The notes below the pieces were generated by a model. The model did not search any database and was not told the origin of the DNA. It saw only the letters and a program-made list of their open reading frames with translations. From Obrimoposthia wandeli (Eukaryota), in contig CDROCS010003798.1 of the NCBI GenBank assembly GCA_977020255.1, positions 124,001 through 188,000 of the forward strand: a stretch of DNA of 64,000 bases, read 5' to 3'. The translations under genes were made by a program, and so were the position numbers. The stretch's first letter is position 1. Every line of letters starts with the position of its first letter. Shown piece after piece: positions 11,987 to 58,239 of the stretch.

Positions 11987-12349
11987 CTATTGTTTATGAT
12001 TTAACCAAAGCAGACAGAGTTGTGCACATGACTGTGTTAAAACACTTTGATAATGTTTCTTACTAAAATGTACTTTCTTTCCAGAATCAAGTACTGTAGA
12101 TATTAATTTAGAAGGGTAATATATCCCAAAGGGGTCAAAAACAAAGATTTCATTTTCTTTAACATGTATTGCAATACAATGTTCACCATGCAAATTAGAT
12201 GAATGTGTATTGATTACATATCCACCTAAACGAGTCAAAGAGGGGATGTGATCAAGACTGTAGACTCCATTGAAACGCGAACCGAGTAGTTTTCTTCCGC
12301 TTTTTGTTATCTCGTCCGAACTAGAATATATAGTAATTAATAAATTCAA
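11987..12349 (-). CDS. Adenain-like cysteine protease
   Basis: VINT..GEH, FDPFG, YQS..TQSCAQLC: His/Asp/Gln/Cys catalytic set; ORF intact. Confidence 0.88.
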   Translation of the reverse strand: MNLLITIYSSSDEITKSGRKLLGSRFNGVYSLDHIPSLTRLGGYVINTHSSNLHGEHCIAIHVKENEIFVFDPFGIYYPSKLISTVLDSGKKVHFSKKHYQSVLTQSCAQLCLLWLNHKQ

Positions 12350-12393
12350 ACTGACTTACTTCATTTATATCTTCTTTATTGTTTTCATTCTGT

Positions 12394-13605
12394 TTATACT
12401 AGTACTGTTCCTCCCTTGGTAATTTGAACCTCAGAATCGAATACTCCATAGATTATAATATTAGTAGGATGTTCAAGTGCTTTTGAAAACTTGATTTCTA
12501 CTTTCAAATTTCCCTGTTTAGGGATTTGAGCTTGATTAATATTGAAATCAGGAGAGAGAACAAATGTGAACAGTGTATACTTGTCCTTGAAATCAGTCAT
12601 TGAAATTCCAATATTAGCATCCTTATCCAAATGACCAAGATTTCTAATTAAAGATTGCACATAAGAAAACACATAATCATTATTTTCAAAGTCATTCGTA
12701 TAAGATTCTTGATAATCAATATTTCGTGCAAGTTTAATTGAGCTCACATTCATGTGTCCAAATTGAGAAACCTCATTTTTAGACTTACCTCCATAGGTAG
12801 AAGTGTTTTTGAAAGCAATTAAAACAAAGTTTAAAAGTTGCATACTACCAAATATCTGATCATTGTAATAAGATTGTGCTCCCGTAGGGATAGCATGAGA
12901 AACAAGATTAGTTTTTCTAATAGGATAACATGGATTTTGCTTCTCCAACCCTATTCGATGTGCAACGAGTACAGATGGTTCCACCTTTACTCTACAAACC
13001 AGCAGTTTTGCTTCCGTAATCTCAATTGCTGCTTTAATAGTATCAGCGCAAACAACACTAAAACCTACTGGATTTCTCTTCATTCGAATGTGTGCCCTTA
13101 CACCGGGTAAAATATACTTTGGTTGCTTAAATAAATCCAAATGTAGACTCCCACAAAGTGACAATCAAAGCTGTTCTTTTTTTTCATCATCATCAAATCC
13201 AATTGCATCAAGATTAATCAATTTCGTATCATTACCGTAATTCAGTAATGTTTCAATCATTGCTTTATGGGTGTAACTAGTATTATGTCCCTAAATTTTC
13301 AAATTATTGAGACTGATAATCACATCCTTGAAAAGAGTATGCAACATGAAATTAGCTAATTTGATATATAAATCATCGTCCAAATCACCTCCTCCTTCCT
13401 TTGTAACTTTCAATTAAACGAGAAATAAACTATCGTTCTAATCAAGATATTGAGTATTGGATCCATTTATTTTGAATCCTAAATCCGGAGAAGTAGTCCC
13501 GTTAGCCGTATTTGTCGGAAAGATTTCTTCAAAACTAGCACTATCAACTACAACCTGAGGTATAGGTTTATCGAATATACACAATTCAGTTTTAGCACAA
13601 CTCAT
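12394..13605 (-). pseudogene. Major capsid protein (double jelly-roll), four in-frame stops in the 5' third
   Basis: MSCAKTELCIFDKPIPQV... continues in frame through stops into ORF 12394-13164 (GSLHLDLFKQ.KYILPGV; GNLKVEIKFSKAL..PTNIIIYG.FDSEVQI). Confidence 0.85.
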
Positions 13606-13967: not shown

Positions 13968-14985
13968 AATTTACGAAAATGAACCGTTAAACTTGTTTTA
14001 TCTCCGTAAGCAAATGTAATTAATCTTCCAGAATAATTACGTATATTAACTTCAATATTGTTAATAGAAGAAGAACTCACTGGAATATACATTGGATTTT
14101 CAATTGGAATATGTATAATATCACAATACTTGTGCTTTTCCTGTTGAACCCAAATTTATTTATTAAGGGAAGTTTAGTTCCTCCTACGAATATTGGTTCA
14201 GTAATACTCGTGTAGATATAAATCTGATTATATGCATTAGTCATTTTAGGAATAATCTTTGCTTTGAAAACCTCATTTTTATTTTCAAATTCATTTTCAT
14301 CAAAACCGATAATTGAGGCTAATGATTTATACATGACAACTTTAACAATATTTGATTTCAATTTGAAATGAATCAATTTATTAACTAGTTTAAAGTTTTC
14401 AAATACATTTGGTAACATTGTTTTAAAATGTTTACACATGCTTTAACATTCGGGAAAAAGAAAAACATTGGGAACTGAATATAATTTCCTCTCGCGTTTA
14501 GTGAATCTGCTTTTTATCTTGAATGTAATTATCGGATACTTGATGTGTTTATCCATAATTCCCGAAAACACATGTTTACCTTTTTCAGGATTAGTTGGAA
14601 ATCCTTATTGTTGTGCAACAATCTCATCACTAAAAAACTATTTCAAAATTATCCCTTTTCCTATAATTTGAATTCGATTCTCTTTATTTAAAAAGATTGT
14701 GAAATCATCGCCCGCCTTAAAACGAGCCAAATCCATTTGACCCTTATCAAATAGTAAAGTCACATCAGTTACTTTATCAGCTTCTTGTTGAGTAATATAT
14801 TCAATCTCAGTTTCACTTTGAATATATAGAGGAGAGTAATTGAAAGAAAATTCCGTAAGAGCAGCTTCCCAAGCACCAGGTAAATTGATTGAACTTTGAT
14901 AATCAATACTAAAACTAGTAGCAGTATTATTCGGTTGAGTTAATGGTGAACCAATACTTGGCAATACAACATAAATTTAGTTCAT
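13968..14985 (-). pseudogene. Minor capsid (penton, single jelly-roll) protein, disrupted
   Basis: MN*IYVVLPS..PNNTATSF..WEAALTEF at the N-terminus; IYIYTSITEPIFVGGTKLPL and TVHFRK-like end. Start overlaps the integrase stop (ATGA). Confidence 0.78.
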
Positions 14986-16010
14986 TCTATTTGAGAAGCT
15001 AATATACAACTAGGTTCAGTATATCCATGCCACTTAACACGATATTGTTTATGCTTTCCTCTCCCTTTTGTCTCTAAGATTTCTTGAATTCTATATACAT
15101 TTGGTTTCTCAGGCAAGACTTGTAATTCCTCGTGATAAAATTTACCCGTGATTACATTATTGCTCTCATCCTCAATGAAATACATTCCCGGTACATGTTT
15201 ATTATCAATTTTAGTTATACGAAATACTTCATCGCTCCAATTATCTTTAAAATTCTTTATAAAAGGAGTAGTACTAATTTGAGAAATACGTACATAATCA
15301 CAAACTTTATACTTGGGTTTCTTTACAACTTGACTTTGGTTACGGCGTTGCCAAATTTCCATAGCATTCTCATCTGTAACATCAACATGTCTCTTTCGGT
15401 TTAATGATGAGTGCTCACTATGATTGTATGCATGTATTATTTGAGGTAAAACAGTTACCAAGGACTTATTTCCCTGCTTTGTGAAATACCTTTTCAATCG
15501 ATCTCTCAATGTTCGATTAAAACGTTCAACTAAAGCAGCTTTATATTGAGAAAATACTGAGTAATGATTAATATTATGTTTTTTCAATAGTGCACTAACA
15601 TGTTTATTAAAAAACTCCTTTCCATTATCCGTTTGGAAATTTCTTGGTTTTATTTCTTTAATCAAAAGCTCCAATGCCTCTAAAACATCGATACCAGACT
15701 TAGACTTTAATGGAATAGCTCGTGCGAATCTGCTAAAGACATCAATACAAGTTAAAATATATCGATGTCCACCGTTAATACTCGCATTGGGAATCAATTC
15801 CATAAAATTTGCTTACCATAAATCATTCGGGCCGCTCGTTTTGTATGATCTCGTTGGGAACCGACTTCTCATTGGTTTGTTTAAGCTGTAAGCTAATTGA
15901 TTTCTCAACCACACCTGAGTTTCCTTTTTCCCCTTTTTTGTCTCATTTGCTAATTTTGAAACCCCTGTGTAATCAACGGGATGACTTGGATCGAACCATA
16001 TTTTCTCCAT
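14982..16010 (-). pseudogene. Retroviral-like DDE integrase with C-terminal chromodomain, one premature stop
   Basis: ORFs 15813-16010 and 14982-15803 are in frame across W*ANFME (expected WQAD, so first catalytic Asp appears as Asn); FQTDNGKEF, VERFNRTL, YRVKWHGY. Confidence 0.92.
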
Positions 16011-16107: not shown

Positions 16108-16530
16108 TCATCGGTTTATTAGTCTACTAGCAAGTGCACCAACTATTGAGCTAATAATTGGTACGAGAAATCCTAAAAATCCACCACTTTGCTTATAAAG
16201 CAACTTACGTTTACCGATTCGTGTTTTGGCATGAAACAAAGCAAGTAGAGGTTTCTTATGCCGATTCAGGTTAGCCTTGACAATTACTTTACCAGAAACT
16301 ATTTTCTGTATCATATTAAGTAAATCATCAATTACAAAAGTAGGGAATTATTTAAGAATAGCTGGGCGGCGAATAGCAGGTGCACGCATGAGAGAATTGA
16401 AATAGGCAATACTCCTAGATTTCTTAACAACACTTCTTTTCGATTTTTGAGCAACCATTTTCCTTGCACTTAAAACTGATTTAATCAATTTTTTAACTTC
16501 GGGTTTAACAGTTTCCTTTTTAAAATTCAT
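16108..16530 (-). pseudogene. Basic core-like protein with adenovirus pX-like C-terminus, one in-frame TAA
   Basis: ORFs 16348-16530 and 16108-16314 are in frame (33-nt gap); ends KQSGGFLGFLVPIISSIVGALA, similar to pX GGxLPxLIPxIAAAIGA. Confidence 0.6.
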
Positions 16531-17177
16531 CTTCGAGAAACTGGTTTCTTTATTTGTTTATAGACGATTATTCCTGATGGATTGAATACATCAGTTCTAA
16601 CTTTAAAGTCATCGGGACAATCTTGAGTAAAATCAATAAAAATGTATCCATGAGGAATAGTAGTTGCATCTTGAAATGAATCAATTAAAAACTTTCTATT
16701 ATTCGGGTAAGCTTGTCTTGAAACAAAATCAACAACCGTCTGATCACGTGGATTCTTGAAGAGAACAAGGTAATGTACATTTAAATTACGAGTTCTATGG
16801 TTCTCTCCTTGATGAAATAGATTTTGTGTGATGAAAATAACAGTTACTTCCCGATGTCGTGCTATTTTAGTGAATAAATTATTGAAATCACTCTCTTTAT
16901 TTGCTTCTTGATATAAATCATCAATAACAATAACATCATGTCGTTGTAATCGCTCAGACCAATTATCATCAAATCCATTAATGACTTTTATATTTTTGAT
17001 TTTCTTAAACTCTTTACTGGTTAAACCGGCTTCTCCATCTCCTCCCTGATGCCAGTATATCTTATTAAACTTAAAAGTAAAGTATTTATTATTTTGTAGA
17101 AACTTACATACAAAATGATTTTTCCCACTACCACTAGGACCTACAATCTGAAAAACTGAATTATTTTTTAAGTTCAT
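16527..17177 (-). CDS. A32/FtsK-like genome packaging ATPase
   Basis: Walker A GPSGSGKN, Walker B VIVIDD, RHREVTVIFITQNLF, YLVLFKNPRD; intact. Confidence 0.93.
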   Translation of the reverse strand: MNLKNNSVFQIVGPSGSGKNHFVCKFLQNNKYFTFKFNKIYWHQGGDGEAGLTSKEFKKIKNIKVINGFDDNWSERLQRHDVIVIDDLYQEANKESDFNNLFTKIARHREVTVIFITQNLFHQGENHRTRNLNVHYLVLFKNPRDQTVVDFVSRQAYPNNRKFLIDSFQDATTIPHGYIFIDFTQDCPDDFKVRTDVFNPSGIIVYKQIKKPVSRR

Positions 17178-17178
17178 A

Positions 17179-17595
17179 TTAAAAATAATAGATTATCGGG
17201 ATAATGTTTATAAGACAAAACTCTTTAAATTTTTTTATTATAATACATCCACTAAGAAACAATAAAAAACTCTTCTCCCAGAAAAAGCTCCTTTTCTCTT
17301 CTTTTTTTGCAAATTCTTCTTTCTTCTGATTGTATCCCAGAATGAGATGATTGACTGCCTTGTCGTGCACCATTCTTCTTACCTGTTCCTCCAAGGATAG
17401 ATTTGAAACATCAATGAGTTTCAGGACATCTTCTTCTATGACATTCTTCGAGATGAAGCTCTTCACCGCCTTGTCAACATTTTGCTTGAAATAATTTGGA
17501 GTAGACATAATGAAGAAGCAATAAAAAGTAATCTGCTTATATACTATACATCTGAAATCTGATTGGTTAATAAATACACTAACTAATAAAGACAC
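17179..17595 (-). CDS. Hypothetical Polinton protein (likely true start MSTPNYFKQ near 17508)
   Basis: Open frame with coding-like composition between the ATPase and the phosphatase; no motif recognised. Confidence 0.45.
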   Translation of the reverse strand: MSLLVSVFINQSDFRCIVYKQITFYCFFIMSTPNYFKQNVDKAVKSFISKNVIEEDVLKLIDVSNLSLEEQVRRMVHDKAVNHLILGYNQKKEEFAKKEEKRSFFWEKSFLLFLSGCIIIKKFKEFCLINIIPIIYYF

Positions 17596-17640: not shown

Positions 17641-18207
17641 TTACACATGATAACGATTAAAAATACGTATATGATGAAGCATAGCTTCATTAGGAGCAGC
17701 AGTAGTCCGTTTAGCTTTAACACGATTGGAAGCAGCAGTAAGACCCATCGAATGAGATAAAAATGCAATAACAATGCAAGCAGCATGTAAACTACCATAA
17801 TGACCACATACTAAAATCTTACCACCATTTTCGATAGTTTCTTTAATTATATTATTAGTCTGTTTATAATATCTCATTATTGTTTCTCCTAATTTTGAGT
17901 TTACAAAGACAGAAGTATATTTTAATTTCTTATAAGATATCTTATCCAGTATAGATGAATTGATTACATGAGTGAAATCGGAGTTCAAAAGTGTAGTTTC
18001 ATCAAACTCATCTCTATAATTACCAATATATAATTGATTTACTAAAATCTCACTCATTTTTGTTTTGTTTAATTTTTCTACATTAAGTTGAGTTAATCTA
18101 GCACTAAACAAACTATCAAAAATATGGGTCATGTGGTTCATTTCCATACTGGAAGCATGAGCTATTATGGATTCCATAAAATCCAAAGCATTTAAAAATC
18201 TAATCAT
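17641..18207 (-). CDS. Dual-specificity phosphatase-fold protein with degenerate active site (pseudophosphatase)
   Basis: QLYIGNY..FTHVINS, KILVCGHYGSLHAACIVIAFL in place of VLVHCxxGxSRSATIVIAYL, VKAKR...PN; intact 188 aa. Confidence 0.8.
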   Translation of the reverse strand: MIRFLNALDFMESIIAHASSMEMNHMTHIFDSLFSARLTQLNVEKLNKTKMSEILVNQLYIGNYRDEFDETTLLNSDFTHVINSSILDKISYKKLKYTSVFVNSKLGETIMRYYKQTNNIIKETIENGGKILVCGHYGSLHAACIVIAFLSHSMGLTAASNRVKAKRTTAAPNEAMLHHIRIFNRYHV

Positions 18208-18242
18208 CTCTTATCTTCTTCAATAATCGGATCTATAATAAC

Positions 18243-18410
18243 TTATTCTATCGTCACTTCATCAATAGTTTCTTCTCTTTTCATAACTGTTGTTGTTGAT
18301 GTTGCTGGTGATGATGTTGCTGCTGGTGATGATGTTGCTGATGATGTTGCTGCAGGTGGTGATGATGTTGCTGCTGCTGGTGAACATGTTGCTGATGTGA
18401 TTTTCTCCAT
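18243..18410 (-). CDS. 55-aa Ser/Ala/Thr/Pro-rich mini-ORF
   Basis: MEKITSATCSPAAATSSPPAATSS...EVTIE*, with TATATAAG about 26 nt upstream; below the ORF-track cutoff. Confidence 0.4.
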   Translation of the reverse strand: MEKITSATCSPAAATSSPPAATSSATSSPAATSSPATSTTTVMKREETIDEVTIE

Positions 18411-18640
18411 TTTATCAATTCAGAGTTAATTTACTCTTATATACTAAACGATATGCTGATGAGGCTTCGAAGTCCGAAATGGTAAGTATTGAATGTTACT
18501 TACAACCATTCCCTTGTTATTAATATTCACTAATTTGATATTGTGAAGTAGCATTTCTGTTTATTATAAACTGATTTCTTCTATTTATACTATTTTAACA
18601 TCTATTTATAGATTACATGTCTTTGTTTAATTACCTATGT

Positions 18641-19630
18641 CTAACCTAATCTAATATTTCTTACTCGTCTAATGATAATTGTCTTGCAATATGGACATGG
18701 AATAAAACGATCTGAACATTTAATACACGTGTTTAAGTGTCCACATGGTAAAAATGCCACGGAAATCGTATCTGTCATGCAAACAACACATTCGGGATTT
18801 TTTAAGAGGTACTCGAGATAATTTATACGATGTTTTGGTTCAGATTTTATTTCTAAAGATCTTAAATCCGTTATAAACTCATATATAGAATCATATTTGT
18901 TACCGAATGTTTTAAATCTATTAACTAAAACGGCTTTGATTCTATCATGGCTATAATCTCGTTTCAGCAAAACTATTTGATGAGTTTCCATCTGAGCATC
19001 AATTTAATCATTACTAATATGATATTCAACAATACATCCGTTCTTGATTCCCATATTAGATTCTTTACAATCTTGAGTATGAAAGATTCTTTCAGGTATA
19101 GTATCAATAAACTCAAGCCGGAGTACTGCTTTCTGACAGAAACAACATCGATATGAATCATTCCAAATATATACATGAGGGAAAATCGATAATGTAGGTA
19201 TTTCAATATCATTAGAATATGTATTACGTACAATAACTACTTTATCCATTGGAGTTGAATCAAAATCAATTTGCTTGGTGCTGGAATCAATTATTGGTAC
19301 GTTTGAAACATTCCTTTTCAAAACAAACGGGCATCTTGGGAAAAATAGCTGATGCCGCTTCATTGGTTTCAGATAGTACTCCCATCCCGATATTCCTCCC
19401 TGACAGTAAATACACTTTACATTATATTTTGAATCATCGTGCTTGTAAAATCCTGCTTTTGCTAAAGCTCTCTTATCCGCTAAACCAGTAAACTTTGCTT
19501 GTAGTGATTCTAATCTTCTTTCTTCATATATCATATTTTCATTTCTTCTTGAAATCTTGTCAAAACGTTGTCGTCTAATGCTGAGTTCTCCATTTTCCGA
19601 AACATAATATCCAATAAATTTAGTAGTCAT
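18641..19630 (-). pseudogene. Inhibitor of apoptosis (BIR + degenerate BIR + RING), split by one in-frame TAA
   Basis: EERRLES..LAKAGFY..VKCIYC..W..H..FPRCPFV (BIR), second CCFC..H..C, C-terminal CVVC..AFLPCGH..C..C..CPYC RING. The two ORFs are in frame with a 12-nt gap. Confidence 0.85.
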
Positions 19631-19779
19631 AACATTGAATGTAGAAATTGTCTAGCTTATATAGTAAGTGAACATCTATTTTCAGTAACATTCTTAGTAT
19701 TTACAAGAATAGTCATGTGATGTCTTTGTCTTAAGAATAAAGCAGTATAAACAATATTTTGCTAATGATTTTATTGAAA

Positions 19780-20459
19780 ATGAATAATCAAAATAATCAA
19801 AATAATCAAAGTAAAGCTAGTACATATATAGGTTCCGGTAGTAATTTATATTCTAATATGAATTATAATATAAATAATCAGAGAGAAAATATTAATCCAT
19901 CAAGTCAAACAATAACAAGTCCTACGCGCGTAACCGAAGAACGTAAGCCCTTTAAGGATATGACTAATACTAAACTATTTTCATAAACAAGAATGTTAAC
20001 CAATTGAGACTAAACGACTTTCATAAACAAGAATATCGACCAATTATAATTGAGCTTTAGAGGATAAACAATTGAATATTTCAATTTATAATTGTCAATA
20101 TGAATTTTGAAAAGCTATATCAACCTATGCATACATATTATGGATATGAGATGCACTTTTTGAAGAAAGCTCATAACTATAATTTTATTTTTCCCGTCAA
20201 CATCGAGCCGCTTAAATTTGATTTTGAAATATCAAATTTGACTTCTGTGGATAAAGAGAGGATCAATATTATCTTGACTCAATTCGGAATCAACTATGCG
20301 CTTCAGGAAAACAAATTCGTGATCAAAGGATCAAATGCCACTTTCAAGCATGAGAATGGAACAATATACGAAGTACCTCCTCCTAAGCAAGAATGGATTC
20401 TCTTAATCAGAATTCAAGGATGCAAGGTCGGACCCAGTGGATTGGAAACTCCAACATAG
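19780..20459 (+). pseudogene. Unknown Polinton gene on the opposite strand (Asn-rich N-terminus plus ORF 20100-20459), probably one frameshifted gene
   Basis: Two ORFs bridged by coding-like sequence in shifted frames; TATAAA near 19745. Confidence 0.4.
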
Positions 20460-20922: not shown

Positions 20923-21769
20923 ACATAAAGTTGCAATATAGATGCAGTACGTGACTGTCTTTGTAGCTATTGATGACTGTCTTTGTTAGACACTCAGACA
21001 CACACACGTGATTGTCTTTGTAGATATTGATGAATGTCTTTCTTAGACACTTACACACATACATGCCTGTATAAGAATAAATGAAGTACGTGACTTGTTA
21101 CTATTGATTACATAAAGATGCAAGTATTTGCAATATAGATGCAGTACGTGACTGTCTTTGTTAGATAGATACACGAACGTTTAAACATATTTATCAAATT
21201 ATATAATACTTTATTTTATAAGTAGATAATATAATTTAATTTAGTTTAATTGAATTTAGTTTAATCATATTTATCAAATTATATAATACTTATTTTTATA
21301 AGTAGATAATTTAATTTAATTTAAATAAATTATATAAGTTTGAACACACACACACACACACACGATATGTATTTTGGTGAAGACTGCATATTAATACCAC
21401 CTTTAGATAAAAAGATATATAGTTTTAAAGTATGTTACTAAAAATAAAATATGAGTCATCGATGAGTCATCAATGAGTCATTAATTAGTCATATTTTAAG
21501 CTCACCGTGACCTTAAATGACATTGTCCTCATGACGTCATGACCTTAAATGACCTTGACCTCATGAGGTCATGACATTGACTTGACCTCATGAGGTCATG
21601 TCCTTATTGTGACCTTAAGCTGGGCTCAAGGGGGTATGCTCAAAACGTCTTTGTCCTGAGCAGAGGGGGTCATGACCTACATTTTGTCCTCACCGTGACT
21701 TTAACTTGACCTACAATTTTGTCCTCATCATGACCTGAGCTTTTTCCAGAAGTCACACATCCACCTACT
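20914..21769 (-). repeat. Right TIR of the Polinton (~856 bp, complete)
   Basis: Inverse of the left TIR plus ~180 bp outer extension ending CCACCTACT; has an internal ~55-bp duplication and an expanded CA tract; flanked by GTATCT. Confidence 0.92.
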
Positions 21770-30700: not shown

Positions 30701-33700
30701 ACGTAAAGTTTAATAGCATATATTGAAGAATATTTTAATCGATATCAGAATCATAATGATTCATTTACAAATTTCATTCCGGGCCCTTTTAATACGTTTA
30801 CCAGTTTTTAAATAAACTTAAATATATTACATTTTGTTATTTATAAAAATATATTTTACTAATTTACAATTTTTATTTAAACTTTTACATTATATTAATT
30901 TATTGTGGAAATTTATTAAAAAATAATTTTATTATAAATGATGCATGTAAAATTTGTTGTAAGTTGGTATAATAAATATAAGACAAACTAACTTTGTAAA
31001 ATTCCAACATACGACAAAACTGTTCAAAAATATTCAAATATTTGTCTTTAATAAAAGCGGGAAAACGTTTATAAAAATGTTTTAGACTTTGTAATTTTTA
31101 TGAAGTAAAACAAAAAACGTTAAAATTGTAAACAATGAACAGTTAAACTACACTTATTTATAATTTAATCTTCACGACGAAAAACTGAAAACAAAGTCGT
31201 TGTGATATACATTTATGAATGAAAAGCAACTTTTCAATTTAAATATAACTCTAATTGTTTATTGAATTTTTAAGTGATGCAAAATAAAAATTGCAAAATT
31301 GTTTCAATGGTTTATATAATGTTTACTCTCTAATGTTATAAGCATTGATAGGAGGACCAAATAAACTCAAAATCAGAAAATTTAATTTAATATGTAATGC
31401 ATTTATGCTAGCCAAAATAAAATTGCAAAACATTAAAAATATTTGAAAAACCAAAGTTATAACTACATTTATATATTAATTTCCAAGCTTTAGTAGTGGT
31501 ATCATTGCCTTTATTTATCAAACACTTAACCAGTCTTTGAGGAAAGGATTCGTATAGGGATTTAATGAATGTCAGATGGATGCTGTCCCAAGCTTTTATT
31601 ATTTATCTTTGTCGTAGTTTTGCTTGCCATGTTCGTATAATTTGTTTGACATCATAGCCCATACATTTTCTAAGCTGTTTAGATCTGGACTTTGAGGGGA
31701 GCATTTTAAAGAATCTTTCTTTTGTTCTTGAAGCCATTTTTAATAATTTTAGCACTATGAACTGGAGAATCATCTTGCTGGAAAACCGAATTATTTGATA
31801 GCATTAAAATTAGCAATGTTTCTAATATAGATTTAAATTCGGGACTCTGTAATGTTCCATTTACAACTGCTAACTCGCTTTTTACATTATACCCAATGGC
31901 ACCCCAAACCATAACTATACCTCCTTCCAACTTATATCATTTGCCTTCATATAATTTCGGATGGTTTGGCAAGACACCTTGATATCTAATGTACTTCGTT
32001 GTGCATGGAATTGAATTAACTAGCATTTTTTATTTGACGAAGTGTTCTATCCAACAGTATCCGTGTACTTCGACGAGTTTCTTTTTTATAACACATCTTC
32101 GTTTAACATAACGATATTAAGTTGAAAGATTTCGTCCTAAAACACATGAAATCTTGGATGGGTTAATTTTCAATCTCAGAAGAATAGTTATTGTAAATTT
32201 TGCTTATTTCGACAAATGCTTTGATAAACCCATCTTAATATGATTGCTAAATACATAGTTAAGGTAAAATGTACAGAAACTTACGTTTATTAGCCTTAAA
32301 ATATTAATGAGATCAGGCCCAGCGAGATCAGATCGAGCTCTAGAAGCAAGCTGCAAAGTTGTGAGATTGGTAGCTAAAACCGAAAAGCCCTACACAATTT
32401 CTGAATCACTCATTTAATCAGCTTGTGTGGGAATTGGCAAAACCATGTGGCGATCAATGAAGCAAAATAATTGACCATGTAGTTAAGGTAAAATGTACAA
32501 AAACTTACGTTTATTAGCCTTAAAATTTTATTTAACAAGATTTTGCAATTTTTATTTTGCTACTTTATATGCGATATATTATACTCGATATATAGATTCA
32601 AATTAATTTATAATGTATTATAAGTAATAATGTATTAAATTTAGAAGTTTAAGCGTAATTTCATAAATTTATTAAGTGTCATTTGTATTTGAAAGTAAAA
32701 TTGCAAAATGTTACTGTTATAATTTGAAATGTATTTAACTTTAAAATATTTTTTATTTTTGCATTTATATTTTTGCAGAGTGCATATAAGGTCTTTGAAA
32801 TTAAACCACTATACTTCAAGTGGATGTACCACTTACTTTTATTTTTAAAAATAACAATAATATAGCAATCATATCTAACGAATATTCTAATTGTCTGGGT
32901 TAAATATTCTTCTTTTTAATATTTTCTGAATAGTAAAGTCGTTAGCTAATTCCTGAATTTTTAAAGATTATTACAGTTTTTATATCCATCGGTAGTCTGT
33001 TGTAAATATTTTGGAGCGTAAATTTTAAATATTCAATCACTCAGTTTGTTATTTGATTTTACCAGACTAGAGAAAATCACTTATATTTGGGCTTAGGATA
33101 TTAAATTCATTCTAGGTACTTTTCTGCGGTCAATGAACATGCTCCCTTTTACTAGCACTCTCATTTAATTATATTTCTTATGGTTTTGTTTTTTAAAGCT
33201 AGAATAAAATATTAGACAGTAAATAATTTTGAAAAATAAAGTATTAATCTAATTATTGCATGGGTTAACATTATATTTACTGCAGTAGTAGGTATTTCTT
33301 AACATGTTCTTATCCCTTTATTAATTTGACTACTCATTGCGAAATTTTCATTATATCTACTGCCATGTGACAGATCAAATATATTAACATTTTTCATTTA
33401 TAATTTACATTTATGAAAAAAATTGACATTGATAAAACTTGATGAATTAATGCAGCAATATAATATCAGTGAATAAAAAAGAATACTGATCACGAATGTT
33501 GATGAAATTTCTGACAGTGACAATTAATATAATGAAGAAGTTATTTAAACTGTTAAACCTAAAATGATAAATGATCACATAAATGTTAGATTAAAACAGT
33601 GTTAAACAGTGATATGACAGCTTTTTCAGTTGCCAGCGTTCGTATATTCACCAATATATAGCAAAACAAATTGAATTCCCAAATTCTCTGGACTAGTGTT

Positions 33701-36700
33701 CTTTTTCTGATATTATTATTATTCGAAAACGGTACATGGTCAATAATTTTGCTTCATTGATCGCCACATGGTTTTGCCAATTCCCACACAAGCTGATTAA
33801 ATGAGTGACTCAGAAATTGTGTAGGGCTTTTCGGTTTTAGCTACCAATCTCACGACTCTGCAGCTTGCTTCTAGAGCTCGATCTGATCTCGCTGGGCCTG
33901 ATCTCATGGCAGAACTTCGCGTTTGAATGTGATTCGCAGACGCTTGAATAGTTAATATCCTTAATTATGTACGAAGAATGTTTGGTACAAAGGTGCCAAT
34001 GGCTTCATTGCTTCATTTGAGAACTTTTCCCGAAACTCACAATGGGAAGAATTTTTGGAACCAACTTAACCAATTTATGTTATCCTCAGTTTGAGAGTTA
34101 TGTTGCACTGTTAGATATATTTCATTGGCTCACTTTCTTTGTCAGGCGAATCTGACGACTTCTCAGTTATTTTTAAATATTTATACATGTGAAAAGCAGA
34201 TTTAAAGTATCATATATGTTCATTGCAGAAATAACCGTAGCGATATTTTAAATGGTCTTCTGTAGAAAATGGTTTTATCATTCGAAAGATACACTTATAT
34301 TTTCATATTCAGCAAATGATCGCATCTAAATGTCTTGCTGAAATTAAAGCAAAGCAACTAAAAATTGAAAAGCATCTTAATGGGTTACGACTATTAAAGT
34401 TTTCAAAATTTAATATAATAAATTATAAAAGTTTAAAAATCAGTTAATAATATCGTTCACTAATTACTTATGATAATTTCAACAACAAAACATATTAAGA
34501 AAAATGCAGCAGCTTCGTCATATTAAAATTCTTATTTTTGTATTTATTAAAATAAAATAGTTGTAAGTTTATTTTGTTGAAATCATATTACCAAATTATA
34601 CCATTGGACATTTAGAACATTAATTTTTCGCGGAACATTTCTGGAACTCCTCTTTGAGGTCTCTTCCATATGTTAAAGCCACATTCATCAATATAAATAC
34701 ATTGCTTCGTGGTCCATTTTTCTTCAATTAAGCACTTCACATAATCTCGACAAAGCCTTTAACACTTTCAAAGTTTTTCTCTGTGACAGAAGTTCAAACA
34801 AATTTGAAACTGTAAAGCTTTAAATAATTCGCTACAGTGTTATTGGAGCAAGTTATGGAAAACTTCTGACCCAAAATTAGCGCCATATGATCGAGGGTAT
34901 GTTCTATGAAAATATGTTCTATAATATAAGCTAAACATGAAATCACATATGGTACCTTGTTTGTGTGTGAGCCTATGTTTTTATCACCGTTGATTAGAGG
35001 TATCATGGTTAGTTTTAAAGTTAGTGTACGGAATCCTATAGTAAGTCTTTTTTATTTTACCTAAACTTATAATAATTCATTATAGATTATGCACAATTCT
35101 GACGATTGTCACCTATGACTTGAATTAGGTGACACCTCCTTTTACTTTTAGAAACTTTTCCGAAAAGTCACACATAACTATGCCAATTGCAACACCATCG
35201 TCATTTTTTTTACTGACAATCTGTCTATACTTCACTGACAAATGCAGGTATCTTAATTTTATTGGCCTATTTCATGACAGATCAAAATTATTCAATATTA
35301 CTTATGAAGCATATTATTAGATAAGCATTTAATTTCACTGTTAATGACTAAAACTGGTACATTAAACACGAGATTAAAATCGTACAAAACGTTTAAACGG
35401 TAAACACGCCCGTACTTAGTAGTTAAGTTCATTGTCGCTGTATGTATGAATGTCCAGTTAGACGGACTAAAAGTAAAAAAATATTTGATTAGCTCTCCAA
35501 GATATTTGCATTTATGAAATATTGATAGTGTTAAAACTGATAGTATTATCGAACCTTAGGAAAGATTCCCCAATGGATGTGGTTGAGCGACCAGTTTGCT
35601 CTGCATCATTGGATTGGTTGGCACTAGGTGGTTCCACCTCGATTACGATTGTGGACGGTTCCGAATCAATCGAATGACGTTTCTGGGACAAGGGTAAGAA
35701 TTCTACTTCAGTATCATTACCGTTCCAGTTATTTCATCTAAGTACTGTTATTAAACTATGTCACTTGGGATGAAAGCAGAACGTTTCCGACAGAGACGTT
35801 TCGGATTTTTGGTAAAAATTGCTGTTCTTTCTAATAAATGTTTTGGTCAATTTATAAATATTTTCATTATTTTAGTTAATTATATTTAATAAATACATGA
35901 TTGAACTGATATTTTGTTTAAATATATTCTTATAAATTTTTTTCCGAATTGAATAATTCTAAATTTTCTTTTTACAAATTGACTCAAATTTATTTTATTA
36001 TAAATTTGTTAGACTTAGAAAAAAGGAAAATGAAAATATCAAAATAAGAATGTATACTAAATAAAAAACTTTCTAAATTGAAGGTTATAGAATAATAAAA
36101 TTAAGATAAAAAATTCTTTGATAATAAAAAGGCAGCAAAAAATTAAAAACTTAAAAGGCCATGAATATGAGTCTATAAGTTAAGAGAAACAAATTTAAAA
36201 AAGTCCGAGGAAAAGGTATTAAGTAAGGAATCTCGGAGAAACTATGTGAAATCCACAGCATCCAGTTGATCAGCTAAACGTCTGCATCAACATAGTAGAT
36301 AATGACATTCGATCGAACAATTATTCCAACGAGAAAACCCCAACAAATTGACTCAAATATAATTTTATTTTATTTTAAATTGACTCAATTTTTTCAACTA
36401 ACTTTTTCTTATAAATGTGACTCAAATCAAAATTTTCGGAAAACTATCTATTTCTTATAAATAAAATCTATTGGAAAGAAATCTAATTTATATCAAAAAT
36501 CTGAAAATTTCGACATGTAGTACTTTTAAATATGGCCAGTCCGAAACGTTCGTGCACCATTAATACCTGTACCAGTAAATTAAGGATTTTCAAGTACATT
36601 GTTTAATTAGCGAAAATTTGCTAACATTTTAACTAAAAAGGGTCTCCAATTCATGTTCAGTACTACACACGACATTTATATTATATTTGACTTTTGTTAT

Positions 36701-42700: not shown

Positions 42701-45700
42701 AAACAAATAGAATACGTATATTTTGACACAGTAAACTATTAAAAAAAGTAACCCTAAAAGTTAGATAAAAATCCGTGGAAATATTCAAAATCTATTTTTA
42801 CGGAAAAAGTGAAACAAAGCATAATTCATTAGGTTTCTGAAACAAAAGCACAGATAGTAAATAAATTGAGCTTTATTATCCAATTTATCCATACAATATG
42901 TTTGTTGAAGTTATTTTCTTCGTTATTTCGACACTGCGGTTCACCTTTTTGAATGTTGTTTATTATACTTTTACTTAAAATAAAAAAACCAGCAAATACT
43001 ATGAAATAAATGGCAAATTTTTGAAAGGTTCAATTTAGAGCAAAATTACAACAACAAAAACAACTTTAGAATTGTATAAATTAATTCAATCTTAAAATTA
43101 ATTAATCTGGTCTTTTGTTTAAGTAAGCTAATTTTCTGATTTCCTGAATTCAAATGAAATTGCGACTATTTTAATTACAGGGATTAATGGATATTCGAGG
43201 AAACATAAATCATAGGAAGTAGAAAAGTGTAGCAGCGAATATTTGCTCTAGCTCGATTCGTAATTAGGATTTGAGAATTAGTTTTTTTTACTCAAAGACA
43301 ATTAGGAGTAAAATAAAATCAAAAAATGATTGTCTTCCCAATGAAAAAACACTTAACTGATTTGAAAATTAATTTAATTAATTATTATTTAACGGAAATT
43401 CTTGTGCTCATTAACTAGGATAGTTGAGGCGCACCAGGGTTGCAATAATATAAAAGATTTTTAATATATTTTCTATTATGGAACTTTAATGGAAATTTTA
43501 TGTTAAAAAATCATGTTAAATGATTTTTTAATATTTAACATTTAATTTTATTAGAAACGTTATTTTTTATTTAAATTGTACGTATAAAAAATGACCATGA
43601 AATATTTATTTTTGGTTAACCTTAATATTATTTTTACCTCTACTAGTGAACTGATTACATTTTGTGTAGGTCAGGAGTTTCCAAAATAAGTTCCGTAGAC
43701 AAAATCAGGCCGAAATTTAATAAAAAATAAACTTACAAAACTGGGCATTAGCGTTTCTCGCCTTTACCTACCAGGTCATAGGCCCACTATAATTACTTAA
43801 TAAATACTTCATTAGTTTAACTTTGAATTGTTTATTCATTTTTCAATATAAATAAGTTTTATTTTTATTCTTCACTTGAGGGTTTTAAGTATTTATAAAT
43901 AGGTAAGAGTTCCAATATTTTATAAATAATACCAAAGAGTTGCGGCCAAAATTGATTGGGAACTCCTGGTGAAGGCCAATTTTATTTGTAATATAACATT
44001 TAACATTATTATGTGTATCTTAGATTGCTCAGCAACCCAGCCTGGATAAATCATGAGCTGTATTGACAAATATACTGGTGGTGAGACAGGAAAATTGAAG
44101 ATATTTGCATTCGCACAGTCAAAACGAAAACTATGACGAACTAAGCTGTAATTTTTGATTGACACTTTGTGTTATCTGTCCGTATCAAGGAAATGTAACA
44201 ATCACCGTCTGGTGACTCCAGTTTCTCGACTACTGAGGTCTACAAAATGTTAATGGCCATTTAAGACAATCAACAAATTAATTATGAAACGAATGAAATA
44301 TCACATGATCCGAAATTACTTCTATCAATACTTCCTGTTGATCAAAAAATTTCAGTTACCACTCAGTTTCTAATTTTCCATGAAGTGTTGTTAATGAAAT
44401 GTAGATACAGAATATTCAGAAACTTTTCAGATGATGTATTGCATGATGAATCTGCCTTTTGGAAGATGCTAGTTATATTTAATCCTCCTAAAATGTATCA
44501 TACTTCGGGTAATAACTGCAGTTCTTCCAAAAATATCTCTCGACAACTGAAGACTCAAAGCCCCCCCCCCTTTGTTCCTTTGAGTTAGTACCGACACTAT
44601 ATACTACTCAAACCATATGAAATTGGAGTTCCTGACATATCGGACTTCAGATCTATTAACCATTACTATATTCTTACCTATAGAGATTTGGGAACTAGAA
44701 AGAATAAGCAATCCAATTTTAAGTGGTGTTGCTTCGAGAATTTTATCTGTTCCAGTGGACTCATTTGGTGTTGAAAGAATATTCTCCAAGTTTAAATGCA
44801 TGAAAAATTACAGGGAACAAGATTATCGATGTCATCACCGACACATTGATTAGAGCATTTACCAACAAAATACATGACACAACTTTTATTGTGATAAAGA
44901 AATTAGTGTATACATCATTTTATTGGAAAGTAGTTTTGCATAATCAATGAGTTTAAAATTGTATGAATTATCACTGAAAATATTTAAGCCGGGTTTTAAA
45001 AACAACTGATTTATAATCTGATTTATACCCGATTTGATTTTTAGAAATAATCCCCTATAATTTCTCGGGAAAAGCAAATTAAACTGACGATGCTCACCTG
45101 TCAAAATCTGTTTACTAGACTACCTCTGCAATTTCTTGATAGAATTTCCATGTCGAAAAGCTTTTACTCGTTGAATTAGCTTGAGTATATTTAACTTTAT
45201 ATAGGATACGATGGAACTTTTAAATAGATTGTCATTTATTAATTTTGAAAAGGAAAATTATTTTTTAAATTATTTATAAACAGTGTATAAAATTATATCG
45301 TATGTTTTTGAACATTGCATTCCAGTAGTTCATCTAGAAGAAATAACCTATGTGGTAACATTTTCCCAACACATTAACGAATTTTGATATTATTTTCAAA
45401 TGAAAATTGCACATTGTTAACCCTCAGCCTGCCAACGTGTGATTTTAAAAATCACACTTCATATTATTTACAATTACTTGATAAGTTGAACTACGAATTG
45501 TATATCCATACATTACTTTGCCTAATTATGTGTGTTGACTACAATCGTGTAATGAAAATAAATTATAAGCAGTTGACTGACTGAGACAGATATTTTTCAA
45601 GCTTTGGTACAACAACTCTTCTTCTTACTGAACATAATACGACTTATTTTGGAACACTAATGTGTAATAAAAGGGACATCCCACCGATTATCCATCAACG

Positions 45701-48700
45701 AATGGATTTGTACCTGTCTTCTGCTTTAGGCTGGGAGGGCCAGCCAAGAGAGTGACCCCTATGTAGTTATCAAGCAAAGACTAAAAAAGGTTAATATGAT
45801 TTACCAATGCACCATGATGATTCAATTGGTGATGAGAGTGTGAAGAAAAAACCAGTAATTATAACTGACTATAACGCTACAAAAGCAGGTGTTGATTCGG
45901 TCGACCAAATGATCAAACAATACACCACTAGGTTCAAGACACGAAGATGGACAGTTGTGCACTTCCAAAATTGGCTCGATGTTGCAGGCGTAAATAGCCT
46001 AACCTGTGTCATCCAAATTGGACAATAATAAATCAAGAACTCCTCACCGAAGACTATTTCCTGAAGACTTTAGCGAAAGAGCTAACACAGCATACATGAA
46101 AACGCGCATAGCAGCAAATCGGGGTTTACAACGTCCATTGATCCAAATGATCGAAAATTATGTTGGTCCGATGATTGGTCCCAATATTGGTGGGGACGCT
46201 GTCGATCAAGCACCTGCAGGTCATGAAAAATGACGATGTTCGCTTTGTAAAGCAACAGGGAAAATGCAGCGTTTATGCAACCTAACAAAAATGACATGCC
46301 AGGTGTGTGACTTGCCAGTCTGTGGTAAGCACTATGAAGTGGCAGGTGTAATCTGTCTGAATTGTAACTGAACTTTAATCTACTTCTTTATTATATTTTG
46401 GACTTCAATTCTATTACTTGGACTTTATTTCTCTAACATTTTTATAAAGTGCATTTTTCGTGTTTTAAAATAAAGTGCATCTATGCATTTTTAGTTTATT
46501 TTTTATTTTATTATAGCCCTTTTCACACTTGTTCATGAATTTAACTGACTAAAACAATGAAAAATACATAAATTAAGGTGTGATTCTTAAAATCACACGT
46601 TGGCTTGAATAGGTTATGTCAAACGTTGGCAGGCTGAGGGTTAATAACGTGTTTGTTTTAATTTCTATTTAATTTTTATCAAAGTGAAAGCCAAAACATT
46701 AAAAGGAACATTATTAACAATAAATACCCCTGATCATGTTAATGTGACTTACTACCTTTTTGTTATTTTTAAACATTAAACTATTGGCCAAAATAAGCCT
46801 TTTCATAATTGTCCAGATTTACGTATATGTCATCCTTGCAATTCCTACCCGATTCAGCATGTGTTCTCAATCAACTTGGGTTTTGCATGATAAATACGGC
46901 ACTTTGAAACATCAGGTGGCGAACAATTTATAGCCGGATAGAAAACGTCGTCCTTACCTGTTTATTTGCATTTAATATTTCCAAATGGTAAAAATGCGCT
47001 ACTGATATTTCGTATTTATATTTAGATATTTGTGAGTATGCCTCGCTTCCACCGATGATTTTGTGCGATCTGCCGCTGACAACGGATTTAATTTCGGCGT
47101 CGAGGTGTATTAACTATCTTTACACAGTTACATTTAATTATTAAGTGTATCATGTGGTTTTTCTGATTTTTATTTTTTAAATTTAAATTATAACATAACG
47201 AATATTTCCACTACGTCCAATTTTTTAGCTGTGTTCTTTATCGAAATATTCACCACCCAGAACTTTCAGTTCATGTAACTGTGGATTGACTAACTTTGTA
47301 TGGGTGTTTACAATATCAGGATATCTGCAATGTATTGGAACTTTCGATAACGGTCTTCTGCGAGATTCGTCCTCAGACATCTCTCGAGTACTTCGCCGAA
47401 TTCTGCACGGTTCTTACTGAAAGTGAAATGTTGGGGAATGCAACCAACAACGAGCGGTGGATTGAGGATGGATTATCAACGTTTTGAAACTGCATATATG
47501 TATGATAATGCCATTTTAGTTGGTTCTGTGTGTACCACACAGCAGCGATACAGCGGACTCACTTGATGGATTTAGGGGCCTCGGTGGGTACCAAGGTAAA
47601 CCTCTTTCCGTGCAGTAGTACCGGTCTGCTGATGGGTCTTGAGGGACCTAGCAAGCTGCTACTGCTGCAATATATGGTGGGGTGGCTGGTACCGGGCTTC
47701 AAGCCGGCAAATGGGTCTCCATTGCTCCCAGAACCCGACAGAGGGAAGTGTTTTACCTTGGAGGTAGAGCTGGGAACAAGGTAATTGAGAAATTGTCAGA
47801 CAGTTAAATGTACAGTGGAGTTTACGAGATCTGAGCCCTTGGTATCGCGCAAAAAGGCGTTCAAATTACAGAGATTTAAGGATTTTATATTTTGATTTTA
47901 TATAGGGTTTGATAGGATTCAGATTGACAAGTCTCACTCCATTAGGGGGTTTACAACATATATGTAGAGGTAAGAGAGCCAGGCCGGAAATAAGGAAAAT
48001 TAAACTGTAATCCATTATAACAAATTGTTTGCGCAAAGTAAATAACTTTTAAACAAATTCAGCTCATTTCCAGTGAATTTAGTGAAGGAAATTTAATTTG
48101 TACGACTCTGAGAATTGAAAACTCACAACAACTATCGGTGAAACTCTTAGCTACGGCTAGAAATAAAGAGTCGGAATATTTGAAGTTTTCTATATAAAGT
48201 TATGTACAAAATTGACTTAATTTATTAAAAGAATTGCAAGAATATAAAGACTTTCAAATAATGTTGGAGATTTTCCTATTAAACAAGTAAGATGGAGAGT
48301 CCTAGCTACAATAAACTGCGTGCCATGAAGTACCAGTCTCAGAGGTCCTGTAAATAATGTCTGGTGCACCTTCCAGAAAGTTTATGCACGATAAAATTCC
48401 ATAAGAGTAACATTACAAGAACCCCAAAATTCTGTCAGTTTTTGGTGATTATTTCTGTCGTTGGCATTCTAAAAAGTCGATTTGAATTATCTTAATTAAA
48501 GACGTATAAACTATCTTTAGAATGGCATGAAATTAAGAAAATTCGCTTCACGAATAGGGCAGTTAAATGACGTAGTGAATAACACAACATCTTTGTAAGC
48601 CGGGATTCAAAGATGAAACATTTCAGTGAGCTGTAAGATCCCAATTAAGCTGAATATGAGGTTACAATTTGTGATTGATGATTGGCCACCATTTACAAAG

Positions 48701-51019: not shown

Positions 51020-51529
51020 ACACTTTACACTACTAGACAAAAAAAAATAAAAAAATAAGGGTTGTTCTAATGCCATGGCATCCGAATACCGAATATCAAA
51101 TAATTATTGGAAATTGTTACCCGATAAAAGATAGTTACCAATCCCTCAAAGATTGGATTAATAACTATGAACATAAAATTAACAATAATAACAATAACAA
51201 TTAAATTGAGAGCAGATTGAAATGAAATATTATCCCTTAATTGACGAGCACTAGTATTAACATAATTGGTAGATCGAGAAATGCTACCTGAAGCCAATCT
51301 TGCCAATTTTTTGGTTATATTGTCAGAGGAATATTTTAAACAAATGTTAAAATTCACAAACAGATAATTAAATTGAATTTATATAATTAAATTACAAATA
51401 TTTATAATTATATAACAAGGAAAATTTTGTCCATGAACTAAATATAAATTAAATTAAAATTAAAATTAAAAAACAGAAACTCTAATAAAAAAATCAATTA
51501 ACTTAATTTGAAAATTAAGAGGAAGTTCA

Positions 51530-57500: not shown

Positions 57501-57652
57501 AGATGCTTCCTCTGTAGCTTTGGTTGCGACCTTTGGGTTCTCCTCAACAACTTTTGTCCCTTCTTTGACAGTCTTGGTTTCTGAGTTCGCTTTTGGCTTC
57601 TTCTCGACCTTCGCTGGTTTTTTAGCTTAACCACTAACCAAAACTTCCGCAC
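51530..57652 (-). mobile_element. BEL/Pao LTR retrotransposon, heavily decayed (gag-PR-RT-RH-IN)
   Basis: Triple zinc knuckle, ALLDDVSTVSYI protease, KTPLGW, WYLPHF, YMDD, LHVFVDTSSEAYG RNase H region, HHCC finger, SDDGLNFVG and NPPGSPHFDGVFE integrase; purine tract GGAAGGGGTA then TG-starting LTR at 51591. Confidence 0.92.
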
Positions 57653-57996
57653 TAGGACACTCCATCTTTTTTCCCGCCAACTCTATCTTTTGTGGCCATT
57701 TCATCTTTGTGGAGAAAGGGAGGTTTACCGCACAAAATTTTAAATAAATCTACCTCACATGCCCGTACATCAACTTTCTCCTCTTTTCGTCCGTTATAAT
57801 AACTAGTTTGCATCAATTTATCAGATATATCTGAATAAATAACTAAATTTTCTTCGAAATATTGGCGACTTTTTAAATATTTTTTACGTTGATTTTTATT
57901 TATCAAACATACCATCTGATTTACCCTCGAATTATTATCATACGCTTTATTTTCACTAGTTTCATCATATATTGATTGTGTAAATTTATTTATCAT
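57652..57996 (-). pseudogene. Possible protein kinase relic (subdomain IX-like)
   Basis: NGRKEEKVDVRACEVDLFKILCGKPPF resembles Aurora-type [28 protein letters not shown]; other subdomains not convincing. Confidence 0.3.
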
Positions 57997-58239
57997 ATAT
58001 TAGTCTCATTATATTCTTTATTTAAATTTAAACTTTTTTGAGGCAATTTGAAGGGGCCACCACAACCTAACGCTTCACTATGATCTTTTGTAATAATAAT
58101 TTCTTGAGCTCTTTTTGTTTCTCTGTCTGGCTTGGCCTCAAAGAACTTTTTAACAAGATAACCGGACACCAAAGACAGACAGAAGTTGTGCACTTTTTTT
58201 CTAGATCAAGATGATTCTAAGATGAAACCAAACTTGACT

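Follow-up and report, generated by a model that had tools for sequence, protein, structure and literature searches.

A compact TBP-like gene and a second class of promoter-like boxes in a Polinton family of Obrimoposthia wandeli

Polintons or Mavericks (adintoviruses) carry a protein-primed DNA polymerase B (PolB), an rve integrase, an A32 ATPase, and capsid-like and protease-like genes between long terminal inverted repeats (TIRs), as described in excerpts of Starrett et al. 2021 (PMC8502044), and all of these are shared by the element considered here, which lies in a 64,000-nucleotide (nt) stretch of the genome of Obrimoposthia wandeli (the window; positions 124,001 to 188,000 of contig CDROCS010003798.1, assembly GCA_977020255.1). 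The excerpts also show that IAP and Bcl2 homologues were noted earlier in adintoviruses ('IAP' occurs twice in the text of Fig S2), and that the legend of Fig 5, which deals with MELD viruses and their relatives, has a 'TBP' label, there and in the preprint; the figure may show a gene related to the one described below. No description of a TBP family in Polintons, of its structure or of a promoter motif was found in the open-access literature, and the text of three Polinton and Polinton-like virus (PLV) preprints, supplements aside, mentions neither TBP nor TATA. Vertebrate Mavericks are reported to be intronless in the available extracts of PMC8097293, and planarian Burro long terminal repeat (LTR) retrotransposons carry BIR domains according to part of PMC6431247. 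Among viruses, the beta- and gammaherpesvirus vTBP (KSHV ORF24, EBV BcRF1) is a TBP mimic paired with a variant TATA box (TATT) before late structural genes, and early herpesvirus genes use conventional promoters, as far as extracts of PMC12529657 go.

Positions 17641 to 19630 of the window hold the accessory arm of a Polinton family of high copy number, in a copy that has decayed. An earlier note on this DNA had described the region as a host-manipulation cassette, with an anti-apoptotic IAP gene, a phosphatase-like decoy and a mini-ORF, and had inferred, together with stress-responsive motifs in the TIR, a circuit that senses stress, replicates, blocks apoptosis and dampens signalling. The noteworthy finding lies instead in a gap that has been deleted from this copy, namely a small Polinton TBP that occurs throughout the clade, together with a second class of promoter-like boxes. 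The accessory genes lie on the minus strand, with the A32 ATPase on one side and the right TIR on the other, and every one of them except ORF109 is broken in the window copy. The features of the arm, including open reading frames (ORFs) and promoter-like boxes, are as follows.

17179..17508, minus strand: ORF109, 109 codons, no assigned function; TATATAAG canonical box at 17536-17543
17641..18207, minus strand: domain with the dual-specificity phosphatase (DSP) fold, a pseudophosphatase (DSPc E 6e-12), without the catalytic Cys and Arg, the general-acid Asp absent at the aligned position
18243..18410 (55 codons), minus strand: N-terminus of the DSP gene, low-complexity, S/T/A/P-rich and acidic, separated by a break in the window copy
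18436..18443, minus strand: TATATAAG canonical box, 33 nt upstream of the DSP gene
18452..18453, no strand: deletion junction, ~800 bp lost, among them most of the TBP-like gene and a small ORF with two predicted exons
18453..18554, minus strand: what is left of TBP-like exon 1; the canonical box, TATAAATA, lies at 18582-18589
18641..19003, minus strand: C-terminal part of the IAP-like gene, a weak UBA-like helical stretch and an IAP-type RING
19004..19630, minus strand: N-terminal part of the IAP-like gene, one BIR (PF00653 E 2e-14) and a Cys-rich linker
19656-19663, minus strand: TATATAAG box of the IAP-like gene

The TBP-like gene escaped the first reading because the window copy has lost most of it. 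In family A the arm runs IAP-like gene, TBP-like gene (with a 38-nt intron), small two-exon ORF, pseudo-DSP and ORF109; the IAP and DSP genes, noted earlier as adjacent and co-oriented, do share the minus strand but are neighbours only because this copy lost the ~800 bp between them, at a junction that none of 67 other loci has. Exon 2 of the TBP-like gene matches PF00352 in other copies (E 3e-12). A stretch of 37-40 nt splits the gene at a single site, with GT-AG ends in 38 of 45 matched family-A loci (67 examined), and intron-like sequence stands at the same site in families A', C and D and in the metagenomic locus L162, the sequences of C, D and L162 differing from that of A. No interruption occurs there in family B or in 47 of the 56 metagenomic loci. 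The intron position is fixed because the family B gene is intronless and colinear, and this colinearity points to a 38-nt intron whose splicing is predicted; no predicted intron is found among the joints listed (15) from four runs of one sample, which is uninformative either way. The small two-exon ORF between TBP and DSP (L008:3307-3550) has a 34-nt GT-AG intron whose ends are kept in 46 of 48 matched loci, and is absent from the sister family A' in the loci inspected.

Studies of the own genome and of metagenomes place this gene in a wide range of Polintons. A PF00352 search of the own genome gave 19,768 candidates, the best 150 of which were scored; below the host-type loci, 14 stretches around 13 of the matches were retrieved, all 14 with Polinton core genes, from families whose ATPases are 67-75% identical to that of the window. 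At least five Polinton families of this genome, A, A', B, C and D, carry the TBP-like gene. With the intronless 144-aa TBP as query, 136 representatives were retrieved at E<=1e-10 among 1.84 billion proteins, mostly unnamed or automatically named TBP and including some cellular TBPs. Polinton core genes accompany the gene in 24 of the 56 metagenomic TBP loci and in 18 of 24 contigs of at least 3 kb, the TBP-bearing elements extending to ATPases only 35-37% identical, and a Polinton found by its capsid alone (L237) also carries TBP (E 2e-51). The TBP alignment search gave no IMG/VR locus and no INPHARED match. Overall, the TBP-like gene is the most conserved gene of the arm and extends across a wide Polinton clade.

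A quick tree of 78 rows sets the short TBPs apart from those of the host and of archaeal type (SH-aLRT 99), and they do not group with the host TBP paralogues. Families A, C and D are represented in this tree by exon 2 alone and two host rows by exon 1 alone, and 7 of the 38 rows pre-labelled cellular, these 7 lacking the canonical first repeat, fell in the short-TBP clade. The host itself has at least five TBP-family loci (C238, C968, C60, C1092; L060-L065), among them two arranged head to head and two divergent paralogues without introns, and a metazoan-type TBP with a 47-nt intron.

The predicted structure is that of a reduced TBP. In the AlphaFold model of the 144-aa protein (pLDDT 97), 144 of 144 residues align to human TBP (Z 14.0, rmsd 2.3 Å; next unrelated fold Z 6.9), and this match together with PF00352 identifies the two-lobed TBP saddle. 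All 35 sequences compared share N6, F39, E96, F98, N112 and F114 without exception, and E94 is nearly invariant; N6, F39, F98, N112 and F114 face the DNA. Of the four intercalating Phe, three are invariant, and a residue other than Phe stands where spacing puts the fourth. The model shows four strands in repeat 1, without any helix across residues 12-61, and the alignment has a gap over helix H2; the protein is therefore not of the cellular type, with its four Phe and both helices in each repeat. What the ~145-aa protein retains is the DNA-binding sheet and the C-terminal EPExF stirrup, which we take to be the TFIIB contact. In TBP structures the C-terminal lobe, intact here, reads the 5' part of the TATA box and binds TFIIB, and the N-terminal lobe, altered here, lies towards the 3' half and has surfaces for cofactors, its helices being those for TFIIA, TAF1, Brf1 and Mot1. 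Being some 35 residues shorter than the cellular core, this natural TBP could also serve as a probe of the surfaces needed for Pol II initiation.

Are these genes maintained by the elements, or is the arm a stretch of host DNA that hitchhikes neutrally? A DNA search of the 1.35-Gb own genome gave 5,999 candidates, a first look and not a copy number, of which the best 40 were scored and the 39 other than the window copy retrieved; because all were selected on the IAP region, the presence of IAP in them is uninformative. The IAP frame is unbroken in 17 of the 40 copies, 32 of them have the DSP and 36 have TBP exon 2, and in a second, independent set of 30 loci selected on DSP, TBP exon 2 lies nearby in 25. 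The sister family A' has the same gene order as family A. Changes seen in single copies were compared with changes common to at least 3 copies, over 41-66 copies per gene. The ratio of nonsynonymous to synonymous polymorphism (pN/pS) is 1.16 for singletons and 0.23 for shared changes in IAP (Fisher p 6e-10), 0.62 and 0.99 against 0.18 and 0.22 in the two TBP exons (pooled Fisher p 4e-5), 0.81 against 0.32 in DSP (Fisher p 0.025) and 0.87 against 0.17 in the ATPase (Fisher p 8e-8). Against one A' copy, omega is 0.29 for IAP, 0.34 for DSP and 0.09 for TBP exon 1.

Neutral hitchhiking would agree with the broken arm genes of the window copy and with singleton changes that look neutral. It is refuted by these selection results (shared versus singleton pN/pS, Fisher tests); shared variants and between-family comparisons, with omega of 0.09-0.34, speak against it, and the TBP is distinct from the host TBP loci and conserved across metagenomes, so that we find hitchhiking scarcely credible. 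The arm genes are element genes under purifying selection during replication of the element, and they decay neutrally after insertion. We hold this to be close to certain, and that confidence covers the whole of what is described here as observed, including the conservation of the TBP-like gene across the clade and the exchangeable nature of IAP and DSP described below. The possibility that the cassette was a passive insertion unique to this copy, against which the earlier note had set its reading, falls away because the shared variants are under purifying selection; the thousands of candidates and the gene order of the sister family likewise mark the genes as borne by the element.

The second part of the finding concerns the boxes upstream of the element's genes. 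Two promoter-like classes can be distinguished: canonical TATA boxes before the TBP and accessory genes, and an oriented ATAAACA motif, mostly TATAAACA, about 35 nt before the ATG. In the window the IAP, TBP, DSP and ORF109 genes each have a canonical box 33-35 nt upstream of the ATG, and boxes of the second class stand at three places.

16555..16562, minus strand: TATAAACA box inside the 3' end of the ATPase gene (YKQ codons), 32 nt before the next ATG
17205..17212, minus strand: TATAAACA box, 35 nt upstream of the ATPase ATG
19746..19753, plus strand: TATAAACA box, 34 nt before the ATG at 19780, divergent from IAP, with no co-oriented gene upstream

Over 201 ORFs of 22 partly redundant elements, 34 of the 56 TATAAACA matches within 120 nt upstream fall at 30-49 nt. 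In 17 less redundant elements, TATAAACA lies 25-52 nt upstream of 29 of 159 ORFs, where shuffled sequences gave a mean of 0.5 and a maximum of 4 in 1,000; these elements are related, so the motif counts are not independent. In the 17-element set, ATAAACA stands before 10 of 11 ATPase genes and before 5 of 8 capsid genes; it stands before none of 42 TBP genes, 22 of which have a canonical TATA. The box at the 3' end of the ATPase gene recurs in 17 of 18 elements, as YKQ codons in 16, and L237 has 7 TATAAACA copies on one strand and 0 on the other. Usable Polinton controls that lack TBP did not come from the IMG/VR scans, in which three PLV-like contigs without TBP have 0-2 TATAAACA each and are too distant to serve as a control; a capsid search of the own genome yielded neither a divergent clade nor any locus, and a GTDB capsid search gave 2 loci, one TBP-positive and one partial.

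Could TATAAACA be a forkhead site, or the polyadenylation signal of the gene upstream, rather than a core promoter? ATAAACA fits the forkhead consensus RTAAAYA, and in some ATPases (L128) the motif overlaps a stop codon and AATAAA. Its orientation and distance are nevertheless fixed, the 201 ORFs show no positional peak for the reverse complement TGTTTAT, for GTAAACA or for AATAAA, and the box also precedes divergently oriented genes that have no co-oriented gene upstream (19746 in the window; ORF122 in L133 and L134). We regard this account as quite improbable.

A promoter switch encoded by the element would accommodate these observations better. Early on, host TBP and Pol II would read the canonical TATA boxes and transcribe the arm; the TBP of the element would then bind TATAAACA and drive the packaging, capsid and core genes late, as the herpesvirus vTBP does at TATT; and the products of the IAP and DSP genes, discussed below, would modulate the host. 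Judged as a whole, this is the explanation we favour, at somewhat better than an even balance. Its central step, the selection of TATAAACA late promoters by the element TBP, is argued by analogy and sits only slightly above that balance, and we are evenly divided on its strongest form, in which a minimal TBP without the N-terminal-lobe helices would reprogramme host Pol II to a dedicated TATAAACA late promoter across the Polinton clade.

The most serious competitor is that TATAAACA is simply the TATA box that the elements prefer for host TBP, and that the element TBP is a supplement or decoy without promoter selectivity, which would either add to a limiting supply of TBP or, by competing for TFIIB, shut off transcription in the host. 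Cellular TBP accommodates C at the position concerned, a C(-25) TATA variant having been crystallised with it (PDB 1qn3), and a stirrup motif conserved where the N-terminal-lobe surfaces have been lost would suit a decoy. Such a protein would not readily account for a motif found before none of the 42 TBP genes and yet before nearly every ATPase, nor for the invariance of the DNA-facing residues in all 35 sequences; moreover, the divergent lobe is the one that, by the background given above, faces the 3' half of the box, where the motif differs. We consider a supplement or decoy possible, and clearly the less probable of the two.

Several points weigh against the promoter switch. Besides the crystallised variant, TATAAACA is itself a near-canonical TATA box that host TBP may bind, 20 of the 42 TBP genes have no TATA in the scanned window, and the IAP gene of family C has a TATAAACA box of its own, contrary to a clean early/late split. 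The link between TBP gene and motif is one of co-occurrence within one clade of related elements, and the tree, a quick one of divergent sequences with exon-only rows, may be subject to long-branch effects. ORF119, described below, has no significant selection signal (pN/pS 0.71 for singletons, 0.39 for shared changes, Fisher p 0.26). Finally, IAP residues ~214-265 align only weakly to residues 117-170 of cIAP1 in PDB 3t6p (i-E 320, not significant alone), which we take to be its UBA domain.

If true, the favoured explanation would mean that Polintons encode their own early-to-late switch, convergent with the herpesvirus vTBP/TATT pair and achieved by one 145-aa protein, and it would argue for a regulated, virion-producing phase of these elements. 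With the TBP and the motif, the timing of gene expression in animal Polintons and the existence of a true viral cycle become testable.

The IAP-like gene is a single 333-aa BIR-(UBA-like)-RING gene with one BIR in other copies, split in the window by an in-frame stop at 19004-19006. Its RING ORF (18641-18991, minus strand; PF13920 E 5e-12) is of the IAP type and C-terminal, with cIAP1 and XIAP RING as best PDB matches (E ~1e-9 to 1e-8), and the BIR has the zinc ligands Cx2C...H...C. The layout had been given as BIR-BIR-RING; BIR and RING are where they were said to be, and Pfam finds no second BIR in families A and C, so that the two-BIR arrangement of the baculovirus type is not seen. The middle region is not conserved and has no Pfam match at E<=10, and family C lacks most of its Cys-rich part; the weak helical stretch suggests a BIR-UBA-RING layout. 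A homologous-protein search with IAP gave none at E<=0.001 among 569 candidates, and the AlphaFold model (pLDDT 40) is unusable. Two host-like BIR loci (L086, L087) are also present in the own genome.

What had been taken for a separate mini-ORF is the 5' end of the DSP gene, the two forming one ORF of 238-276 aa in 19 of 30 DSP-selected loci. The window has the signature VCGHYGSLH in place of HCx5R, as does family A, and family A' has VCGHYGGLH. HCx5R is absent from all 28 motif read-outs of IAP-selected copies, all 28 of DSP-selected loci and all 18 of family A', and as the general-acid Asp is missing too, the description as a pseudo-DSP holds good; the same state in A and A' implies that it is older than their split. 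A resemblance to mitogen-activated protein kinase (MAPK) phosphatases finds no such backing, since DSPc is the sole significant match of the full 264-aa ORF, which has no rhodanese or KIM docking domain, and the best PDB matches are atypical DSPs (DUSP19, DUSP22, STYX). A PF00782 search of the own genome gave matches whose best 150 score alike, and the 20 inspected are one repeat family. This high-copy repeat (L100-L119, e.g. L107, L118; L085:54-2370) has long open frames of up to 4,633 aa with a DSP that has a complete HCx5R, followed by a second, degenerate DSP domain; in L085 the DSP lies behind an integrase-like ORF that is presumably gypsy-type. The Polinton pseudo-DSP and the catalytically complete repeat DSP are 31% identical over 147 aa.

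The BIR-RING protein would probably act as a ubiquitin ligase of the IAP type and delay cell death, and the pseudo-DSP as a non-catalytic binder; taking the two together as a host-modulation step, we see the case as evenly poised. IAP adjoins TBP without DSP in family C, families B and D have neither beside TBP, and among the 56 metagenomic TBP loci a DSP (with the catalytic motif) occurs in one and a RING-only gene in one. IAP and DSP are variable, exchangeable cargo and no fixed unit. This cargo is real and functional at the family level, and only moderately new; it extends the known list of Polinton accessory genes and is less surprising than the TBP.

It would be a different matter if the two genes formed a dedicated circuit, an IAP and a MAPK-phosphatase decoy triggered by stress motifs in the TIR. 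Both genes are under purifying selection, their order is common to families A and A', and the right TIR is indeed enriched in AP-1-like (3 against a shuffle mean of 0.16), CRE-like (1 against 0.01) and AGGTCA words (11 against 0.37), which is the part of the motif claim that stands. These words are not independent sites because they derive from short tandem repeats; AGGTCA half-sites dominate (11 against 3 AP-1 words), and nothing ties them to stress. With no MAPK-docking domain in the DSP, no co-retention of the two genes across families, and starts that lie 1.3-2.5 kb from the TIR, each with a TATA box of its own, a stress circuit appears unlikely.

The remaining parts of the element, which spans 14 kb between the inverted repeats at 7417-7981 and 20931-21769, are listed here.

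7417..7981, no strand: left TIR, its outer part absent relative to the right TIR; 309-nt inner block 95% identical
8099..10735, minus strand: protein-primed PolB in several fragments (PF03175 E 7e-6 to 3e-3, three ORFs)
11987..12355, minus strand: cysteine protease-like gene, presumably, from gene position; weak Pfam match, orthologues in relatives come after the capsid-like gene
12394..13164, minus strand: 3' fragment of what we take, from position, to be a major-capsid-like gene; resembles 403-424-aa ORFs of related Polintons, no Pfam match
14982..15812, minus strand: rve integrase with chromodomain (PF00665 E 3e-11, PF00385 E 0.006)
16108..16347, minus strand: pX-like core protein fragment (PF05829 E 0.0025)
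16527..17177, minus strand: A32-like packaging ATPase (PF04665 E 1e-4)
20100..20459, plus strand: 119-aa ORF (ORF119), of a family often flanking the TBP-like gene in relatives; no family assignment
20931..21769, no strand: right TIR with AGGTCA, AP-1-like and CRE-like repeat arrays and terminal CTACT

The fragmented PolB and the integrase are recognised by Pfam, as is the ATPase of the ATPase/capsid/protease module, whose other two members are recognised by the ORFs of relatives and by position. Long TIRs with (AGT)n/(ACT)n-type ends are seen at the right end, the left being truncated: the terminal CTACT at 21769 is the same end point as in copy L043 and near that of L042, and the left terminus, where the 6-bp target-site duplication would be read, is missing.

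Neighbours of the TBP gene in other elements were also recorded. The beta-rich ORF119 family (window 20100-20459; L075:5401-5799; L084:3929-4462) stands beside TBP in 18 of 56 metagenomic loci and has no usable Pfam or Atlas match; our guess is a single-stranded-DNA-binding OB fold. A conserved ~155-aa ORF with a D-x-E-type motif at its start, also beside TBP (L148:5870-6355, L149:156-677, L165:6588-7052, L237:10736-11215), has no significant Pfam match and, as we would assume, resembles a DEDD exonuclease. Other cargo on TBP-bearing Polinton-like contigs (L123, L143, L149, L162, L165, L170) comprises a DSP that keeps the catalytic motif and seems to have a micro-intron, an E2 ubiquitin-conjugating enzyme, a leucine-rich repeat (LRR) protein, a RING-only gene and KilA-N proteins. 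The Polinton contigs L237 (a 12.7-kb GTDB contig) and L238 lie inside bacterial metagenome-assembled genomes, probably through binning contamination. Elsewhere in the window, 3347-4693 is GC-richer, with overlapping long ORFs in several frames and spurious repeat-like Pfam matches only, and is probably a tandem repeat; 51500-58750 is strongly skewed to the minus strand, with a weak zinc-knuckle-like ORF at 55311-55985 and a Helicase_C exon at 58427-58750 (E 6e-18); and two more elements bounded by inverted repeats, with arms of 175 nt and 33-40 nt, lie at 32307-33907 and 45410-46651.

How, then, does this arm compare with described systems? Its IAP shares the zinc-ligand BIR and the C-terminal IAP-type RING of cellular IAPs (cIAP1/2, XIAP, DIAP1) and baculovirus IAPs, which have two or three BIRs, whereas the Polinton protein has one. 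The pseudo-DSP resembles STYX-type pseudophosphatases and atypical DSPs in having the DSP fold without catalytic Cys or rhodanese domain, and differs in also lacking the signature Arg and general-acid Asp and in being borne by an element. The TBPs of Nucleocytoviricota show the viral TBP fold (BFVD matches to E 2e-8; Atlas cluster at 0.95), with named matches of 169-506 aa against ~145 aa in Polintons. They work with an RNA polymerase that the virus itself encodes; the ORF lists of TBP-bearing Polintons show no gene for one, and the spliceosomal intron predicted for the Polinton TBP implies a nuclear setting with host Pol II. Like the Burro retrotransposons (PMC6431247, in part), the family is a high-copy mobile element with a BIR, set in a DNA element with separate genes rather than in a retroelement polyprotein, and its predicted GT-AG micro-introns distinguish it from the vertebrate Mavericks of the PMC8097293 extracts. 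With the herpesvirus vTBP, finally, it shares a virus-type TBP encoded by the element and a variant promoter-like box before structural genes. The herpesvirus ORF24 is a multidomain protein that works in a six-protein complex and binds Pol II directly, whereas the Polinton TBP is a bare 145-aa saddle with a TFIIB-type stirrup, without an extra Pol II-binding domain and linked to the ORF24/BcRF1/UL87 proteins by no more than a weak fold match to BcRF1 (E 3e-3); the likeness is one of analogy, not of membership.

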